Shown: positions 4,189 to 14,463 of the stretch, in pieces
How the letters are laid out: each line of letters starts with the position of its first letter
How positions within the stretch are numbered: the stretch's first letter is position 1
Assembly (NCBI GenBank): GCA_038882975.1
Contig: JAVZNE010000001.1
Coordinates: forward strand, 192,001 to 256,000
From: Candidatus Bathyarchaeia archaeon
GTDB taxonomy: Archaea > Thermoproteota > Bathyarchaeia > Bathyarchaeales > Bathycorpusculaceae
DNA: 64,000 nucleotides
Reading direction: 5' to 3'
Notes under the pieces: generated by a model
Database searches by the model: none
Told to the model about the DNA's origin: nothing
What the model saw: the letters and a program-made list of their open reading frames with translations, nothing else
Made by a program: the position numbers and the translations under genes

Positions 4189-5274
4189 TTAAATAATGCA
4201 TTTTGATTCTGATACATCATGGAAAACTTCTTTGGCTGGGCAAATTGAAACTCCTTCAGCCAGTGAAACATTATCCCCTATAACCGCGTAATCCCCTATA
4301 ACACAGTTACTGCTAATTTTAACCCTTTTACCCACAACAACATTCTCACCAATTATGGCTCCATTTATTAAAGAATCATCAGAAATAGAGACGCTTGAAA
4401 AGATGACCGAGTTTTTTATGTGAGCGTTCCTTCCCACGCTAACGTTTTTCCCGAGAACCGCGTATGGTCCAATGGTTGAGCCTTCCCCAATTGTAGCGCT
4501 TAAATCACAAAATACTGGTTCCTTTATCTTCCCGTCACCCTTTATCACGTTCTCATGTCTCCCACGAAGGCTATCCAGCAGAATCTTGTTTATCTCCAGA
4601 TAATCTTCAGCCTTACCAATGTCAGTCCATAGACCATTGAACACGTAGCCAAAAAGCTTGCCTTCCTCCACAAGCTTTGGAAATACCTCACGCTCAAGAG
4701 AAACCTTTCTTCCAATCTGGATATATTTGAAAATTTCGTGGCTGAGAACGTATATTCCAGCGTTTATAAGATTTGATGGAAACATTCCAGGCGGAGGTTT
4801 CTCAATAAACCTTTCTATTTTGCCGTTATCGGCGAGTTCTGCAACCCCATATCGACTTGGATCTTTAACAGTGCATAAGGCTATTGTTGCAACAGCATCT
4901 CTTTCCTCATGTTTCCTAATTATTTCAGCATAGTTTATGCTGGTGAAGATGTCGCCATTTACAACCAGAAAATTGTCGCCTTTTAAGAGTTCTTCAGCAT
5001 GTTTTATTGCGCCGCCTGTTCCAAGAGGCTTTTTAGGAGGGTCATACGAGTATACAATTTTCACTTTGCCCTTCGAAAACTTGGAATTTTTTATGTGAAA
5101 GGCTGTTTGATGATTAACCGCCAATATCGCCTCTCTTATCCCACTTTTTGATAGGCTTTCAAGGGTCCATTCTAAAAGCGGCTTGTTAAGCACTGGGAAT
5201 AGAATTTTGGGTCTTGTACAGCTCAGGGGTCTAAGCCGGGTTGCAAATCCTCCCGCTAGAATTAATGCCTTCAA
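4189..5274 (-). CDS. sugar-phosphate nucleotidyltransferase (mannose-1-P guanylyltransferase-like) with beta-helix tail
   Basis: LAGGFATRLRPL, PLGTGGA, VNGD, FIEKP, hexapeptide repeats. Confidence 0.88.
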   Translation of the reverse strand: MKALILAGGFATRLRPLSCTRPKILFPVLNKPLLEWTLESLSKSGIREAILAVNHQTAFHIKNSKFSKGKVKIVYSYDPPKKPLGTGGAIKHAEELLKGDNFLVVNGDIFTSINYAEIIRKHEERDAVATIALCTVKDPSRYGVAELADNGKIERFIEKPPPGMFPSNLINAGIYVLSHEIFKYIQIGRKVSLEREVFPKLVEEGKLFGYVFNGLWTDIGKAEDYLEINKILLDSLRGRHENVIKGDGKIKEPVFCDLSATIGEGSTIGPYAVLGKNVSVGRNAHIKNSVIFSSVSISDDSLINGAIIGENVVVGKRVKISSNCVIGDYAVIGDNVSLAEGVSICPAKEVFHDVSESKCII

Positions 5275-5353
5275 TGGGGTTTCACCGTTTATGCTGCAAG
5301 CTTATATTCAAAATCCTTCGAATAAAACAGTTTCGTGAAGAGGAGGAAGCCTT

Positions 5354-6112
5354 ATGAAAGTTCTACTTCATGAGATGAGTTGGGTGGAGGCAAAGGAATA
5401 TTTTGGCAGAAATGATATAGCCATCGTTCCAGTTGGCTCCAATGAACAGCATGGTCCCCAAAACCCCCTCGGAACAGACCATTTTATTGCCAAGGCAATA
5501 GCCGAGGAAGCTGCCAAACGTGCAAAGGTTCTCTGTTTGCAAGTTATTCCTTTCGGCGTAAGCCACCACCATAGACAGTTTTGGGGCACAATTCATGTTT
5601 CACCTAAAACCCTAAAAGCCTACGTGAAGGATGTTTGCCTATCCCTAAACTATTATGGCGTAAAGAAAATTGTCATTGTTAATGGGCACGGCGGAAACCT
5701 AAACGCCCTAACCGAGCTAGCTAGAGAGTTAAGAGAAAAAGGGATTTTCGTCTCAGTTTTTCAATGGTGGCCCGCCGCTGGAAAGCTTTTTCCAGACATA
5801 TTTAAGCCGGAAGAGAGGGGACACGCTGGTGCTGAGGAAACTTCTGTGAATTTGGCTTTACACCCGCATCTAGTAAACATGGATAGGGCTTTGGACGAGG
5901 AGGTGCGCGGGCACATCGCAGAGGTTGAAGGCGTAACCCTTCCATTGGACACTGCGGATCGCACAAGTTCAGGAGTTTTCGGCAGGTCAACAACAGCTTC
6001 AGCGGATAAGGGTAAACAGGTTTTTGAAGCGGTGGTTAACGAACTTGTTAAACACATCGATTTGCTGAAAAAAGCGAAAGTTGAGGATTTGATGGCTAAA
6101 TCGAGGATTTAA
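5354..6112 (+). CDS. creatininase-family amidohydrolase
   Basis: GSNEQHG..LGTD, NGHGGN, HAGAEETS; SD GAGGAGG upstream. Confidence 0.88.
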   Translation: MKVLLHEMSWVEAKEYFGRNDIAIVPVGSNEQHGPQNPLGTDHFIAKAIAEEAAKRAKVLCLQVIPFGVSHHHRQFWGTIHVSPKTLKAYVKDVCLSLNYYGVKKIVIVNGHGGNLNALTELARELREKGIFVSVFQWWPAAGKLFPDIFKPEERGHAGAEETSVNLALHPHLVNMDRALDEEVRGHIAEVEGVTLPLDTADRTSSGVFGRSTTASADKGKQVFEAVVNELVKHIDLLKKAKVEDLMAKSRI

Positions 6113-9260: not shown

Positions 9261-9770
9261 ATGAACGGTGCAAATGTTCGATGGTCAGCCCCCAAGGAAG
9301 GTAGCGAAAAGCGGGTCAGAAAAGGGGAAGAATTAAACGAGGTTGACGTGAAAATTTTGAGGGCTTTAACTTTGGATGCGAGGCTTTCCTCAAGGCAGCT
9401 GGCTAAGCAGTGTGGCGTATCCACAAGCACAGCCCTATCAAGAGTAAAGAAACTGGAAGAAGCTGGTATAATAAAGGGGTACGCAGCCCTACTGGACCAT
9501 GAGAAACTTGGCTACGCCCTAACCGTCGTGGTCGAAATAACAGTTTCAAAAGGAAGACTTTTAGAAGTGGAAAGCGAAATTGCAAAACTTCCCAACGTCT
9601 GCTGCGTCTACGACGTAACAGGACTGATAGACGCCATAGTCATAGCCAAATTCAAAAACAGAGAAGAACTAAGCAAATTTGCAAAACGCTTGTTAGCAAT
9701 GCCCTACGTAGAAAGAACAAACACCCACGTAGTGCTAACAACAATAAAAGAAGATTTCAGAATAATCTAA
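9261..9770 (+). CDS. Lrp/AsnC transcription regulator
   Basis: HTH (DVKILRAL..ARLSSRQLAK) plus RAM domain (YDVTGLID); divergent from glnA. Confidence 0.9.
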   Translation: MNGANVRWSAPKEGSEKRVRKGEELNEVDVKILRALTLDARLSSRQLAKQCGVSTSTALSRVKKLEEAGIIKGYAALLDHEKLGYALTVVVEITVSKGRLLEVESEIAKLPNVCCVYDVTGLIDAIVIAKFKNREELSKFAKRLLAMPYVERTNTHVVLTTIKEDFRII

Positions 9771-9837
9771 ACCCTTAAGAAACATTGAAGGGAAGGTTTA
9801 ATTTCACCTAGAAAAATAAGAAATAAACTGAAGACAT

Positions 9838-9952
9838 GCGGGGGTTGCCAAGCCTGGCCAAAGGCGCAGCCCTGAGGAGAAACCCTTCCAAAAGTTTCGC
9901 GGAACGGCTGTCCCGTAGGGGTTCGTGGGTTCAAATCCCACCCCCCGCACCA
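9838..9952 (+). tRNA. tRNA-Leu(GAG) with 27-nt intron at 37/38 (9878-9904), CCA encoded
   Basis: Acceptor GCGGGGG/CCCCCGC, anticodon stem CAGCC/GGCTG, loop CT-GAG-G, long variable arm, T-arm GTGGG-TTCAAAT-CCCAC, relaxed bulge-helix-bulge. Confidence 0.93.
9940..9950 (+). repeat. att-like core copy 1 (ACCCCCCGCAC, tRNA-Leu 3' end)
   Basis: Identical 11-mer at 11767 and 13067. Confidence 0.8.
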
Positions 9953-9970
9953 TCGCCACAACGTCGAATT

Positions 9971-9996
9971 CGCTCAAACTTCGCTCTTTTTGAGCG
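9971..9996 (+). other. hairpin downstream of tRNA-Leu (possible terminator or att-associated structure)
   Basis: CGCTCAAA-N10-TTTGAGCG, perfect 8-bp stem. Confidence 0.4.
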
Positions 9997-10052
9997 TAAA
10001 ACAGCAGAAAATTGACTTTAATTTTTTGGGTCTCTTTTGATTTTGCTTGAGA

Positions 10053-10069
10053 GTTTATAACTGTCAAGT
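10053..10069 (+). repeat. subterminal inverted repeat, left
   Basis: GTTTATAACTGTCAAGT matches the reverse complement of 13035-13051 at 16/17. Confidence 0.7.
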
Positions 10070-10246
10070 CCAAAAATAAATTGTTTCAATAGGATGGGAT
10101 GGGAATGGAAAAATAAAGAATTCTTCCGGCCGTTCATATAACGAATCTTTATCTCTATTAGACTCAACAAATTGACAAACACACTATATATAAATTGGTT
10201 AAACTCTTATTAGAATTTAGAGTAAAAATTTCAATCGGCTCAATAT

Positions 10247-10704
10247 ATGTCTATGTCAAGAGATAAGAAACTGGTAACACCTCCAAGGTTAAGTATAGCA
10301 GACCTTCTAGAAATACAACACACCGATATTAATTTTGACAATTTTTCTGTTGAAGAAATCGAAGAATTAATTGGTGACGAAATTGTTCAACGCTATCTGA
10401 AAATGGTTAAGGAAGCACGATTAACACGTTCTCCTGAGCTTGAAAATTATCAAAAGGAACTGAAAGAACAGGTGAAAAAGAAATCCTACTTTATTTTAGA
10501 AAGAAAAGTTAGCGAAGAATTAAGATGGCGAAGAGCGTCTGGATTTGTCTCAATAGCGAGTTGGTTATAGGAGTTCTGTGCATTTTATCTAACAACTTGT
10601 TAGGAGCCTCGCTGCTATTTATAATAGGAGGATTTTTTATGGCGATTGCGGTCGGCTACAAAAAGATTGAGATGGGAATAAAAAAACTAGGAATAAAGAA
10701 GTAA
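10247..10704 (+). pseudogene. frameshifted hypothetical protein with two C-terminal TM helices
   Basis: ORF stops at 10570, but the -1 frame from 10561 reads LVIGVLCILSNNLLGASLLFIIGGFFMAIAVGYKK...KK* to 10704. Confidence 0.6.
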
Positions 10705-11112
10705 CCTGACGAGGGCAAATATGAAAGAGGCTTAAAATTAACTCGTTTCTAAAATTTCATCTTAAAAAAATCATCTTAAATCGGATTAAAAAGGAGATAT
10801 CAAATAGATATCATTTTTGCTTGTTTCACCCGTAGAAATTTTCTGGTTCAAACTTTTCTTTCAACTCATCTCTAATTTATTTAATATTGTCTGAAAATTG
10901 TAACCATGAAAGTGAAAATGCTATCACATTAACACCTGCTAGCATAATATGAATGTAAGAAATGTGGAGTAAAGAAATTCAAAAGCACTCTTATTGTACC
11001 TTCCTGGTTAGCTGACACTGGAAGACCCGTCTGTTATAGTTTTAAACCTTACAGACCTAAAGAACATAAAGATGAGAAAAAGAAACATTGATGCAACAGT
11101 AAACTTAACATA

Positions 11113-11388
11113 TTATGAGTGATATTCAATAAAGTACAATAAAATAGCGAAGATTACTATTTGAAGTATAAGTTCAATCATGACTGACATGGGGTCTATT
11201 GCCCATCCAGCTAATAGGTTAAATGGAAAGGGTAGAGCCTCAATAATCGTCATAATCGTAAGTTCTGATATTAACTCTACAATGTTTCTGCTCAACAAAA
11301 TTCCTATTATCCAAAGTGCTGTAACAATAAACCCAGCAATAAACCACAAGCCTATATACTTAGCTATTTCACTCACTATTTCGCTCAT
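11113..11388 (-). CDS. small hydrophobic membrane protein
   Basis: 91 aa with 2-3 hydrophobic segments. Confidence 0.6.
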   Translation of the reverse strand: MSEIVSEIAKYIGLWFIAGFIVTALWIIGILLSRNIVELISELTIMTIIEALPFPFNLLAGWAIDPMSVMIELILQIVIFAILLYFIEYHS

Positions 11389-11766
11389 TAATAAACTGGT
11401 GTCATCAATAGAGAGATAAAAAGTTTATTTTACGCAATGGCGCTTTCGCAGTGTTCGAGCATTTTGAATGTTTGAATTTCTAAAATGGTTGTTTGAACTT
11501 GGTAAACCATCTATACGCTTTGCTTGCAACTTTCTTTTTCCATTTCATATTCAGCTTCAGTTTTATACACACCTAACCAACACCAAAGAGAATGCTCCTA
11601 AACTTCAAAGATAGAACCGTATGATTACTCCATTCCAGCTAAAAAGATTCCTAGTACTATCAACTTGGACCTTTAGGCTTACCTTTCAGAACATCCCTTG
11701 CTGTATGCCACCAACCAGACATAGGAACATCATTTACCAATGAAAAGTTCAATTCCCTGCTTAACT

Positions 11767-11777
11767 ACCCCCCGCAC
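11767..11777 (+). repeat. att-like core copy 2
   Basis: ACCCCCCGCAC, a GC-rich word within AT-rich DNA. Confidence 0.8.
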
Positions 11778-11972
11778 TGAATTTCACTTCTAGGTTTAAA
11801 CTGTCACATCGTTTGTCGGAATAAAATAAAACTATAGTGTGAGCAAAACTCGGATTACGTAAATAAATATGGTTAAAGCTGTAAATGTCAACTCATTCGT
11901 GTATCTGTTTTTTATGTGATATTGTAGATATATAGAAAACTATAAATGTAGCTACTTGTAATAATATGAAAC

Positions 11973-12155
11973 ATGGGCAAACTAAATGTTAAAATAAAAA
12001 ATGATGTCGATGTCAAATTCAGAGAAGAAGTATTTAGAAGAAAAGGCATGAAAAAAGGAAACTTAACAGAGGCGTTAGAAGAGGCAATACTGTTATGGAT
12101 TAACACAGATACTCTAAAGAAAAAAGAGAAAAATATTAAAGGCGAAACAAAATGA
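11973..12155 (+). CDS. ribbon-helix-helix DNA-binding protein
   Basis: Alternating beta strand KLNVKI followed by two helices (..GNLTEALEEAILLW); TATA-like TATAAA at 11941. Confidence 0.7.
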   Translation: MGKLNVKIKNDVDVKFREEVFRRKGMKKGNLTEALEEAILLWINTDTLKKKEKNIKGETK

Positions 12156-12262
12156 TGTTTTCCAAGGTAGAAATAAATATTAAGTGTATAGCAATAATAT
12201 ATATTATAGAATAAGAAAAGTTAGATAAGCTACTAGAAGATTATGATTTAGAGGATGAGAAA

Positions 12263-12475
12263 ATGAAAAAAAGTAAGACGAGTGGGTTCGAATACATAAT
12301 GTCTTTAGGTGACAAACTTGGAGAATACGTTGAAAAATGGATAGTAGTATTAGACAACAAAATAGTAGCAAGTGGTGAAGACTTAAAAGAGGTTTATAAA
12401 GAAGCAAAGGAGAAACATCCTCAAGAGACTCTTTTCGTAATGAAGGTTCCTGCAGACAAAGTCATGGTGCTGTGA
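12263..12475 (+). CDS. DUF5678-like small protein
   Basis: EYVEKWIVVLDNKIVASGEDLKEVYKEAKEKHP resembles the DUF5678 pattern; GAGG upstream. Confidence 0.7.
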   Translation: MKKSKTSGFEYIMSLGDKLGEYVEKWIVVLDNKIVASGEDLKEVYKEAKEKHPQETLFVMKVPADKVMVL

Positions 12476-12481
12476 CATTGT

Positions 12482-12934
12482 TTGCCTTCTAAAAAGAGTG
12501 TTACTTGCAAATATTTATTTTATAGGTATACCATGCGAAATGGTACAGTTAGGACACTGTTACTTCCTTTAGTTCATGTCCGAATAGAATCTCCCGAAGA
12601 ACATATCGAAACAGATGCATTGGTGGATTCAGGTGCTACTAGGACACTTATTCCAAAAGAGATAGCAGAAATTTTGCCATCTTTGAAATATGAAGAACAA
12701 CGTGCTGAAGTCACGGGTGCTGGAGGTGTATTCCTTGCTAGAGTAACAAGATTGAAAAAGCTTACACTGATAAAGAATATCACTCCATTTGCACATTTTG
12801 TGGAAATTGAAGTGTTAGTTCCAGACCATGAGGGTATTTTACCCTATGTGATTCTTGGAAGAGACTACGTCTTCCGCCGATTTGACATTACATTTCATGA
12901 AAAGAGGCGAAAATTAACTTTTACAGAAATCTAA
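12482..12934 (+). CDS. retropepsin-like (clan AA) aspartic protease
   Basis: ALVDSGAT catalytic motif, flap VTGAGG, ILGRD. Confidence 0.82.
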   Translation: MPSKKSVTCKYLFYRYTMRNGTVRTLLLPLVHVRIESPEEHIETDALVDSGATRTLIPKEIAEILPSLKYEEQRAEVTGAGGVFLARVTRLKKLTLIKNITPFAHFVEIEVLVPDHEGILPYVILGRDYVFRRFDITFHEKRRKLTFTEI

Positions 12935-13034
12935 ACGGCGAGAAGTTCAAATGTAACGCCAATCGCATTAATGCATACAACCAACTAGGCAATCTTTTTA
13001 TGGAAAATGGAGAAATTGACTTGTAGATAATGTC

Positions 13035-13063
13035 ACTTGACAGTTTTAAACGACAGTATAAAC
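13035..13063 (-). repeat. subterminal inverted repeat, right (two tandem motif copies)
   Basis: Reverse complement reads GTTTATACTGTC + GTTTAAAACTGTCAAGT. Confidence 0.7.
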
Positions 13064-13066
13064 CTA

Positions 13067-13077
13067 ACCCCCCGCAC
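13067..13077 (+). repeat. att-like core copy 3
   Basis: ACCCCCCGCAC at the right island boundary. Confidence 0.8.
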
Positions 13078-13161
13078 TTTTGCATTTATCTCCTATTACA
13101 CACAGAGAATATGGTAAGTCTTATCTACTTGAGATTTTGCACGCTGCAAAACTAAAATGGT

Positions 13162-13237
13162 TGGTAGCCCGGGGGAGATTCGAACTCCCGTCGGCGGGTC
13201 CAAAGCCCGCTATGCTTGTCCACTACACCACCGGGCT
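13162..13237 (-). tRNA. tRNA-Gln(TTG), CCA encoded
   Basis: AGCCCGG/CCGGGCT acceptor (A1-U72), anticodon arm GCGGG-CTTTGGA-CCCGC, GTTCGAATC T-loop. Confidence 0.95.
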
Positions 13238-13262
13238 TCATACATACATCATGTGATTAACT

Positions 13263-14387
13263 TTAACTCTTTGATATGTGTGTTTTGATTAAATGTTTCC
13301 TTTCTCGCCTTATTTTCCATATGTCTTTTCTAGCCTTTTTGATGGTTTCCGCCGCCTCCGCCTTACTTACATTAGCCGTGTCATTTAAGCTTAGAAGCTT
13401 TACAATGTTTTGACAGTGTTTTGGGTTACCTTTTTCAAGTTTTTCTATCGAGTGCATTAGTCTTGTGTAGTCTATTTTCTGCCTTTCAACTATGGCTTTT
13501 AGCCAAGCATAGTTTTCAACAATGTTTAGGGATATACTGGATAAGTAGTGCACTGTTTCAGCAAACTTTCTAGAGTTTATCATTGAGTTTGCTCTTAAAA
13601 TTGTGCCTTGCATGAACGCGGTGTTAAAGTAATAGTTTAAGCTTGTTCTAACTTTGAAATGCACGTTTTTCAACGTTTGAGATTTCCGTTTAACGATGAA
13701 GCTCATTTCGTCCCAAACAGCTTTGAAGAGTTTTAGCTTTTCTTCAGCTGCTGTTATATTCACATCATCTAGTTTAGCCATTACTATATAATCGTTAAAA
13801 ATTTCTGGCATGCCAAGCTTTTCCGCTGCAATTTCCACTTTTTCTAGGAATCGGCTGTTTGAAAAAGGTTCGAGAGTTATTTCCAACAATACACGCAAAA
13901 TATTTTCCATGGCAACAACGGCGAAGAGATGGGCGCTTAGATGGTCGCCTTTGGTGTGGGCTGAGGTTGCACGGCTTAGGTATATGTCTGACTCTATTAT
14001 GTGGGTTTCTATCCTCATTCCAATCCTTTCATGCGAGCCATAAAACTTCGCCATTGAAAGCTTTGTATTTGTCAAAGTCCAGTCCCTATCGTATAGGATT
14101 TGGACTTCGTAGAGTTTTTGGTCAAATTTTGGATGTATTGGACCTTGAATCAAATGTTTTGGAACAAAATTAAAGTCTAGAAATAGGTCGCCAACAGAGA
14201 CTCTCTCCACATACTCGTCTTCGAGAGGGTTATTGCTGAGGACTAGCAAGTCGACATCACTTGAAGGTACAGCGTCGCTGCGGCTCCAGCTTCCAAATAA
14301 GCCTATCCCAGAAATGGTTTCGTTGGCAGCCATCTCTTTTACGATTTTCTCCAGCGTTTTTCGCACTTTCTCTGGGAGCTTTATCAT
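13263..14387 (-). CDS. Pol-beta-type nucleotidyltransferase domain protein with helical C-terminal region
   Basis: LFGSWSR..SDVDLLV motif; start trimmed to MIKLPEK. Confidence 0.75.
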   Translation of the reverse strand: MIKLPEKVRKTLEKIVKEMAANETISGIGLFGSWSRSDAVPSSDVDLLVLSNNPLEDEYVERVSVGDLFLDFNFVPKHLIQGPIHPKFDQKLYEVQILYDRDWTLTNTKLSMAKFYGSHERIGMRIETHIIESDIYLSRATSAHTKGDHLSAHLFAVVAMENILRVLLEITLEPFSNSRFLEKVEIAAEKLGMPEIFNDYIVMAKLDDVNITAAEEKLKLFKAVWDEMSFIVKRKSQTLKNVHFKVRTSLNYYFNTAFMQGTILRANSMINSRKFAETVHYLSSISLNIVENYAWLKAIVERQKIDYTRLMHSIEKLEKGNPKHCQNIVKLLSLNDTANVSKAEAAETIKKARKDIWKIRRERKHLIKTHISKS

Positions 14388-14463
14388 TTTGGCACAACTC
14401 TTTTGGTAGATTAGTAGCACTAATCATTATTCAAGATTTGTGAAGGGGATATTTTAGTTTAAA

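Follow-up and report, generated by a model that had tools for sequence, protein, structure and literature searches.

Directly behind a tRNA-Leu(GAG) gene of a Candidatus Bathyarchaeia archaeon, two small modules of AT-rich DNA stand in tandem, and neither encodes a recombinase. They lie in the 64,000-nucleotide (nt) stretch that we analysed (contig JAVZNE010000001.1, positions 192,001 to 256,000; hereafter the window), where three exact copies of an 11-nt core, ACCCCCCGCAC, mark the end of the tRNA gene, the junction between the modules and the far edge of the island. Our comparisons show that positions 9951-13077 are a precise insertion at the 3' end of the tRNA gene, with the repeats as its ends, and the modules are members of a family of tiny cassettes that is widespread and apparently undescribed. 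On balance, we favor a reading in which these are non-autonomous cassettes, bounded by attachment (att) sites and stacked by site-specific recombination in trans.

A preliminary description of this DNA had noticed that the 11-mer splits the AT-rich interval, and the measurements bear this out. The copies are spaced 1827 and 1300 bp apart, and the GC content is 0.34 in each interval, dropping to 0.29-0.38 between core copies, compared to 0.444 for the source genome (G000; an assembly of 1,423,221 bases in 15 contigs, 94.7% complete). Allowing up to two mismatches yields seven matches in the window, with 8.2 expected, and no relevant extra copy. Across the genome, the exact word is rare: all six copies are at tRNA-Leu ends or att-like sites, namely three tRNA-Leu 3' ends, copies 2 and 3 of the window and a partial, 24-nt tRNA-Leu end on contig C3, which closes an 11.4-kb element bearing an integrase.

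The attribution of the 11-mer to a tRNA-Leu 3' end also holds. Rfam recognizes a tRNA at 9838-9949 (40.1 bits, cut-off 29). ARAGORN misses it in standard mode and in intron mode returns 9838-9952 under the name Ser; the Leu(GAG) identity comes from intron-less orthologues that ARAGORN finds in two other genera of the same family (G021 and G016). The intron is about 27 nt long in the genus of the source genome, and ARAGORN labels the intron-bearing gene Ser(GGA) or Phe(GAA). Comparing copies 1 and 3 over the 18 nt that end at the cut gives 83% likeness, and the right arm of the island (R1, see below) therefore continues as a diverged tRNA end.

An empty site in the closest relatives

Ten relatives were compared at this tRNA-Leu, nine congeners plus one further genome (G031), all located through the Lrp/AsnC regulator gene that lies upstream of the array; an upstream open reading frame (ORF) is presumably a glutamine synthetase, as judged by eye. 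In the two closest relatives, the tRNA end runs straight into the sequence right of copy 3. The left flank is identical at 544 of 550 positions in G005 and at 513 of 551 in G031, the right flank at 617 of 623 and 598 of 621, and in both genomes the flanks abut exactly at the 11-mer, which means that 9951-13077 is precisely absent from both. The interval is thus not shared by the relatives, the last 11-mer is indeed the edge of the island, and the breakpoints fall on the repeat, all as the preliminary description had anticipated. A caveat concerns G031, which is filed in another family of the order, yet has an Lrp protein 94% identical and flanks 93-96% identical to those of the window; its contig or bin may be misplaced.

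Chance recurrence of a short, G+C-rich word without biological meaning is refuted, short as the repeat is (11 nt): the expectation is 0.01 copies per window, three or more copies arose in 0 of 100 shuffles, six of six genomic copies are at tRNA-Leu or att sites, and the empty-site breakpoints coincide exactly with the repeat.

Neither module interior was found by blastn in the 13 other genomes of the genus, in which only a left-arm match (G007) and a 30-nt match (G002) occur, and the acquisition is therefore recent. In 8 of the 10 relatives, a tRNA-Gln gene follows 46-291 nt past the tRNA-Leu. The tRNA-Leu(GAG) site of G011 holds a tyrosine recombinase gene, and the contig of G004 ends too early to judge. 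The G011 insert (L042, G011:C1:212600-218021) has its recombinase gene at 4400-5422, within 1.7 kb of the site and reaching the contig end, and the protein is 28% identical to an integrase on contig C8 of the source genome. Its presence at the orthologous tRNA-Leu(GAG) makes the site a hot spot in the genus.

Directly beyond the tRNA-Gln of the window, 13263-14420 (- strand) encodes a protein of 385 residues whose N-terminal domain is a nucleotidyltransferase (Pol-beta type); the protein is kept beside the site in seven other retrieved loci.

Arms, cargo and distribution of the cassettes

Searching the island against 101 genomes of the family with blastn revealed two non-coding pieces that recur. 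The first, 9966-10081, has matches of 77-84% identity in about 14 genera, every one immediately following a CCCCC(C)GCAC core, often at tRNA-Leu. The second, 13035-13066, recurs over 30-32 nt at 91-100% identity in nine other genomes, directly before such a core. We refer to these as the long left arm, L-alpha, and the right arm, R1.

Further copies of L-alpha were gathered by blastn, and an alignment of 27 distinct copies reads core, about 85 conserved nt and GATTTTACTTGAGCGTTTAAAACTGTCAAC. Conservation stops sharply after GTCAA(C/G), beyond which the sequences are unrelated at once. Module 2 begins with a shorter left arm, L-beta, in which 13-17 variable nt lead from the core to GTTTAAA(A)CTGTCAA; in the window, 11791-11805 is 93% complementary to 13052-13066. 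L-beta matches occur in G055 and G124, and the same arm type follows cores in other genomes. The R1 type reads TTGACAGTTTTAAAC GACAGTATAAACCTAA and then the core. A sister right arm, R2, reads CCGAGAATTTAAAC CGAGRTYTAAACCTAA and is paired with a left arm carrying GTTTAAATTCTCGG.

Each arm system thus has a 13-nt site (GACAGTTTTAAAC-like) in two direct copies in the right arm and one inverted copy in the left arm. The most likely role of these sites is to bind the recombinase or an accessory protein. They contain TTTAAA or TATAAA after purine-rich bases (13035-13066, 11791-11805 and 10053-10069), and appear to resemble archaeal BRE (B recognition element)/TATA promoter elements aimed at the core. 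Within the 85-nt insert of L-alpha (window 9975-10010; 27 copies), TTCGCTC occurs twice in direct orientation, followed by an inverted GAGCG, an order that mirrors the two-direct-plus-one-inverted layout of the arm sites; this set may be a binding site for a second protein. We considered L-alpha as a structured RNA and rejected it, given a consensus energy of -0.88 kcal/mol and double changes in 2 of 10 pairs. Rfam finds two tRNAs only in 9700-13400, and no family for L-alpha.

We define the family by a CCCCC(C)GCAC core at both ends and TTTAAAY-N7-TAAACCTAR abutting the core, and the island conforms to this. The right arm of this form closes both module 2 and the whole island, and left arms with an inverted right-arm site (L-alpha, L-beta or a third type, L-gamma) are present at 9951-10076 and 11778-11808. 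Module 1 has no recognizable right arm.

Table 1. Features of the tRNA-Leu(GAG) array, in window coordinates
Feature	Position	Strand	Description and basis
tRNA-Leu(GAG)	9838..9952	+	intron-bearing; 3' end is the attachment site; Rfam, ARAGORN, orthologues
Core copy 1	9940..9950	+	ACCCCCCGCAC; end of tRNA, attL core; exact repeat
Module 1	9951..11777	+	1827 bp, GC 0.34; L-alpha arm, three short ORFs, unrecognized right end
Long left arm L-alpha	9951..10076	+	126 nt; about 85 nt conserved non-coding, then ..GAGAGTTTATAACTGTCAAG
Inverted copy of right-arm site in L-alpha	10053..10069	+	17 nt, 94% complementary to 13035-13051
Module 1 ORF	10247-10570	+	no family match
Module 1 ORF	10525-10704	+	no family match
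Module 1 ORF	11113-11388	-	no family match
Core copy 2	11767..11777	+	junction between modules; exact repeat
Module 2	11778..13077	+	1300 bp, GC 0.34; L-beta arm, three genes, R1 arm, core
Short left arm L-beta	11778..11808	+	13 variable nt, then TAGGTTTAAACTGTC
Small ribbon-helix-helix-like protein	11973..12155	+	60 residues; Pfam RHH_6, E 5e-4, below cut-off
DUF5678 protein	12263..12475	+	70 residues; Pfam PF18929, E 9.7e-15
Retropepsin-like (clan AA) aspartic protease	12533..12934	+	133 residues from ATG; Pfam Asp_protease_2, E 5e-9
Right arm R1	13035..13066	+	ACTTGACAGTTTTAAAC GACAGTATAAACCTA; two direct site copies, abutting core
Core copy 3	13067..13077	+	attR core and island edge; exact repeat, empty-site breakpoint
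tRNA-Gln(TTG)	13162..13237	-	host flank; ARAGORN, Rfam

To see how far this arrangement extends, the arm-plus-core pattern was searched in 151 sampled genomes of the family, a one-genome-per-species collection, metagenome contigs and viral contigs. R1 or R2 next to a core occurs in 31 of the 151 family genomes, representing 27 of 70 genera; a reversed control gave 0. The one-genome-per-species collection contains 58 such loci (56 labelled Bathyarchaeia or Bathyarchaeota, one Nitrososphaerota and one Hadarchaeota), and the metagenome contigs contain at least 124, of which 80 were retrieved. The viral contigs gave no match, and hence no virus or plasmid donor was found there.

Counting core-to-core modules of up to 12.5 kb across all DNA retrieved, we obtained 77 distinct modules elsewhere, 62 of which end in R1 or R2. 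These 62 are 340-7172 bp long (median 1191 bp), and 53 are no longer than 2 kb, sizes that are skewed small since most loci had 2-kb flanks only; 42 begin directly at a tRNA-like end. Upstream context of 5 kb or more was available for 19 right arms; a core or tRNA-Leu lies 425-7172 bp upstream in 14 of these, and none is present within 14-20 kb in the other five. In the 62 modules, the same arms enclose unrelated cargo.

No recombinase is encoded inside 9951-13077, as had been stated from the outset: Pfam finds none in the six island ORFs, with no match at all for the three of module 1, and tblastn of the island with the seven integrases of the genome gives nothing better than E = 1.1 when E values up to 10 are admitted. 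The same seven queries find an intact integrase in 0 of the 62 R1/R2-ended modules. Matches occur in 4 of the 77 modules, two of them intact genes in elements of 11.1 kb and 8 kb with arm types other than R1 and R2, and two of them remnants, discussed below. A Pfam scan of 110 module proteins (6 from the island, 23 and 81) detected no recombinase, transposase or Cas1.

Instead, the cargo is diverse. S-adenosylmethionine (SAM)-dependent methyltransferases are numerous, and GNAT acetyltransferases, SnoaL/cyclase-like proteins, MFS transporters, glyoxalase, cupin, radical SAM and rhodanese proteins and a P-type ATPase also occur, together with MazE-like, nucleotidyltransferase and HEPN parts. All-vs-all clustering of ORFs from the first 91 sources (90 loci and the window stretch) gave no cargo family common to the modules; what recurs are host flank genes and frames overlapping the arms.

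Five pairs of modules have interiors that are 80-94% identical in different contexts. One member of L086/L167 lies directly at a tRNA-Leu and the other behind another R1 arm; one member of L157/L204 lies at a tRNA and the other behind another arm type; and L116/L212 and L124/L159 follow tRNA-Leu genes with different body sequences. L134/L169 is the fifth pair. Such recurrence is what mobile cassettes would show. The pair comparisons also indicate that insertions and deletions occur within cassettes (852 vs 1755 bp in L124/L159).

Within the window, module 2 makes up a complete cassette of the L-beta..R1 kind, and its three small genes are intact. The protease frame is open from 12482, and the protein also has an NCBIfam match (clan_AA_DTGF, E 2e-6, below cut-off) and a weak PADLOC match to the candidate defence protein PDC-M52B (E 1.5e-5). 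The three genes may form a toxin-antitoxin-like or defence module. The same trio occurs in the same order in G023 and partially in G045, G122 and G069; none of these homologues has flanking cores or arms within about 1.5 kb, so the cargo of module 2 also lives outside cassettes. Module 1 has a genuine L-alpha left arm and long non-coding stretches. Because of its low coding density and unrecognized right end, it may be a partly decayed, remnant or rare-type cassette.

Candidate recombinases and the origin of the array

We hypothesize that the island was made by site-specific recombination of the tyrosine-integrase type, with the crossover falling within the 11-nt core. A cassette would consist of a left arm, one to a few accessory genes, a right arm and a core. 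Because no cassette encodes a recombinase, integration and excision would have to be catalyzed in trans. Each integration would rebuild the tRNA end and let another cassette in between the tRNA and the earlier cassette, and the result would be a stack, with the order of insertion following from this. The preliminary description had offered two readings, very small elements inserted in trans and stacked, or larger elements decayed by internal deletion. The former gains support from the 62 arm-bounded modules, their unrelated cargo and the five recurring cassettes.

What could act in trans? Searching the genome for PF00589 gives seven matches above cut-off and one fragment, all of them outside the island and away from the array; SSV-type integrases (PF16795) have no match in the genome. 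One of the seven, on contig C3 (G000:C3:96523-97854), is intact with 444 residues, and its gene ends about 50 nt from a tRNA-Leu(TAG) whose last 33 nt are the same as those of the window tRNA. The search for tyrosine recombinases that had been proposed thus turned up an intact enzyme at a tRNA-Leu, in keeping with the general statement made there that tyrosine integrases duplicate tRNA 3' ends.

The relatives of the C3 integrase in the 151 genomes form a clade sited at tRNA-Leu ends. Among the 13 best-matching loci (49-100% identity), a tRNA-Leu or core lies within about 90 nt past the stop codon in 12, and a contig end truncates the 13th. The 17 loci that follow (45-51% identity) are placed at tRNA-Arg, Pro, Met, Cys, Phe, Ala, one Leu, or where no tRNA was found. 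Elements of the C3 clade with both ends known are 11-17 kb long and have right arms of a type R5, or of a type R3 that includes 17-24 nt of tRNA. In the R5 arm, the distal site (GCCAGTTTTAGAAA) is similar to the R1 site, and in one module (L326) a C3-type integrase remnant is joined to an R2 arm. The integrases of this tRNA-Leu clade, represented in the source genome by the C3 enzyme, are the most likely candidates for trans catalysis of the cassettes.

The C3 enzyme belongs to a tandem array of its own at tRNA-Leu(TAG), outside the window (C3 ~85400-97980; L003, L004, L329), which includes the 11.4-kb integrase-bearing element with its 24-nt tRNA repeat. The second integrase in that array has 308 residues and is without the N-terminal zinc-finger part. 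Locus L330 (G373:C41:10031-13700) is 100% identical to L329 over 3670 nt, including the tRNA-Leu and tRNA-Thr flank, and G373 is filed in another genus. The likeliest explanation is one contig in two bins; the alternative is a recent transfer.

Several observations weigh against trans-mobilization of stacked cassettes. No integrase is tied to R1, L-alpha or L-beta arms in the DNA retrieved. The integrase-bearing elements at tRNA-Leu have R5 or R3 right arms, and their left end is the integrase gene, not an inverted site. The sole whole integrase near an R1 arm, in L205, belongs to a family not otherwise found beside cores. The source genome has a single R1 arm and, by blastn and the arm-plus-core pattern, no second cassette of the family, which leaves cassette activity in this genome unproven. 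The right end of module 1 (~11707-11766) gave a best score of 26 against 289 arms, compared to a null median of 27. Finally, the two integrase remnants, each a 33-residue C-terminus beside the left core of an R2-ended module (L326 and L160), imply that some small modules are deletion products.

Neither a circular junction nor an excision product was seen in Logan contigs, which are not raw reads. In Logan run X1, the island has a depth of 46-62, without differences, and the flanks have 77-112. Several joints starting at 9949-9952 have sides of 18-35 nt and possibly come from other organisms, and the uncovered parts in runs X2, X6 and X8 carry no weight.

Two candidates were examined and set aside. 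The L205 integrase lies 360 nt from an R1 arm, and we rejected it as a helper because this proximity appears incidental: the 19 homologue loci inspected, taken from the 29 order genomes with a match, include no case of an R1-type site and one case of a core-like word. A resemblance of the right arm of module 1 to an R4 type, noted by eye, was dropped since its alignment score of 26 is below the shuffled median. The 320-residue tyrosine recombinase family to which the L205 protein belongs (L205:298-1257 and homologues, L277-L306) occurs in 29 of the 301 order genomes. It is often multi-copy with internal stops or fragments and lies away from tRNA-Leu cores, a behaviour like that of insertion sequences.

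The principal competitor is decay, the second reading of the preliminary description, which we consider unlikely as the general explanation. Two or more ordinary integrase-bearing elements in tandem at tRNA-Leu would have been reduced by internal deletions that removed the integrases and most of the genes, leaving immobile scars. Archaeal elements are reported to lose the integrase after integration in the sections available of one study (PMC8371274), and cis-mobilizable elements (CIMEs) in bacteria are defined as decay products in those of another (PMC5704250). The modules of the L326/L160 type, with their integrase C-terminus at the left core, are laid out like the intact C3 element, and module 1 has few coding regions, no family matches and an unmatched right end. 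However, the window itself has no integrase remnant, even at E up to 10. L-alpha, L-beta and L-gamma are short, dedicated non-coding arms with an inverted site, rather than ends of integrase genes, and no integrase was seen in elements with these left arms (27 L-alpha copies; L-alpha/L-beta..R1 modules of 4.7-7.2 kb). Cassettes also recur as units in different contexts. In addition, the arms are 91-100% identical across genera, whereas the Lrp protein beside the tRNA is 66-81% identical in other genera that keep a close copy, which argues for selection on the arms.

It is improbable, in our view, that the whole 3.1 kb entered once, as an L-alpha..R1 element already holding the internal core and L-beta junction. 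Such a composite would have been excised from another array via its outer cores, so that the middle core copy would record history elsewhere and not a second insertion here. The outer pairing of L-alpha on the left with R1 on the right is in fact recurrent, at six other places (L071, L080, L093, L190, L200 and L312), the inverted site of L-alpha pairs with R1, and the closest relatives miss both modules together. Excision of tandem elements as composites is also known in bacteria (PMC5704250, in the part available). Against this stands a Logan contig, from two hot-spring runs, that joins the tRNA-Leu end via three other letters to L-beta at 11780, as a variant without module 1 would; its matching sides are 18-26 nt long and possibly belong to another organism, and nothing else separates one event from two.

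Far less probable still is a transposon-like insertion, in which the 11-bp repeat would be a target-site duplication made by a casposon-type or other transposase that targets tRNA-Leu ends. Casposons in Methanosarcina do insert at tRNA-Leu 3' ends in tandem arrays with 14-bp duplications (PMC4779613, as far as available), and inverted repeats lie near both ends of the modules here. Yet Cas1 (PF01867) has no match in the genome (completeness 94.7%), no transposase is among the 110 module proteins, and the inverted sites have a subterminal, asymmetric placement, being separated from the core by 13 to about 100 nt on the left and abutting it on the right. Moreover, the likeness of the right arm to the tRNA extends past the repeat (18 nt, 83%), as in att sites, and integrase-bearing elements share the core, with tRNA repeats of 17-38 nt.

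If stacking in trans is indeed how the array arose, a broader proposal can be made, which we put forward tentatively. Bathyarchaeia may have their own gene-cassette platform, unlike integrons in mechanism and alike in outcome, with tRNA-Leu 3' ends as anchors. Free-standing cassettes, each with one to a few genes, would be inserted, excised and reshuffled by integrases specific for tRNA-Leu, whose genes would be located elsewhere in the cell or arrive on visiting elements. The att site of a cassette, 75-170 bp, would be composed of a diverged tRNA end and three copies of the 13-nt putative protein-binding site, and the window would be one array of two cassettes.

Significance and relation to known systems

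Very little is known about mobile elements in Bathyarchaeia, an archaeal class that is abundant and uncultured. Movement in trans would give single accessory genes a route to spread within the class, including methyltransferases, acetyltransferases, transporters and toxin-antitoxin-like pairs. The short, defined arms and the candidate integrase lend themselves to tests in vitro and might be developed into a compact tool for site-specific integration in thermophilic archaea. In genome annotation, the arm-plus-core pattern can locate cassette boundaries, which gene-based island finders overlook for want of an integrase gene. We found no description of integrase-less tRNA-Leu cassettes in Bathyarchaeia in the literature outside subscription journals and supplements; the available part of a paper on Bathyarchaeia viruses mentions integrases and no such arrays (PMC10848311).

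The nearest known concept is the CIME. As described in the part of the source available, CIMEs are flanked by attL and attR, are without integration genes and occupy, one behind another, a target gene's 3' end, with the target rebuilt each time; they are decay products of ICEs (integrative and conjugative elements) or IMEs (integrative and mobilizable elements), and move in cis with an adjacent integrase-bearing element (PMC5704250). The window modules likewise keep attL and attR and have neither integration nor transfer genes. In contrast to CIMEs, no integrase-bearing element is present between the tRNA-Leu and tRNA-Gln of the window, and these modules are far smaller (0.3-7 kb, median 1.2 kb), belong to an archaeon and share dedicated short non-coding arms across many genera around unrelated cargo. 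A remnant of an integrase is present in neither window module and in 2 of the 62 related ones, and the non-coding left arms argue against decay for most.

Archaeal elements at tRNA genes, whether pNOB8-type, SSV-type or the cryptic integrated elements of Thaumarchaeota, take the tRNA 3' end as their attB, have direct repeats on both sides and can form tandem arrays (PMC6563490, PMC8371274; both available in part). The source genome has such an integrase-bearing element at tRNA-Leu(TAG). However, an integrase is what defines the cryptic integrated elements in the Thaumarchaeota survey, in the sections available, where even the smallest, of 2.6 kb, has one (PMC6563490), whereas all 62 R1/R2-ended modules here are missing an intact integrase. 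If our reading is true, these cassettes would be the smallest integrative units described in archaea, the minimum for comparison being that 2.6-kb element.

Casposons resemble the array in targeting a tRNA-Leu 3' end, in tandem insertion and in the short repeat shared between neighbours (PMC4779613, in the part available). They differ in having Cas1, PolB, terminal inverted repeats and 14-15-bp duplications, none of which is found here, where the repeat is 11 nt and the sites are subterminal. Integrative mobile elements exploiting Xer (IMEX) are small elements without their own recombinase that use the host Xer proteins at dif and accumulate in tandem at a single site of the chromosome. Here, a tRNA-Leu end is the target instead of dif.

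Integrons, which have been reported in Archaea (10.1101/2022.02.06.479319, as far as available), provide the closest parallel in outcome. In both systems, the arrays are built of small cassettes that mostly hold one to three genes and no recombinase of their own, each with a conserved recombination site that has inverted-repeat ends, and both carry accessory cargo (here methyltransferases, acetyltransferases, glyoxalase-like proteins and toxin-antitoxin parts). Unlike in integrons, no integrase gene lies beside the window array, and a tRNA-Leu 3' end takes the place of attI as the anchor. Judged by the empty site, the crossover would also lie in the central 11-nt core and not in the outer GTT of attC, a comparison made without an attC model. 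Taken together, these likenesses and differences describe a variant of known att-site accretion, with a fair chance that it represents a distinct cassette platform.

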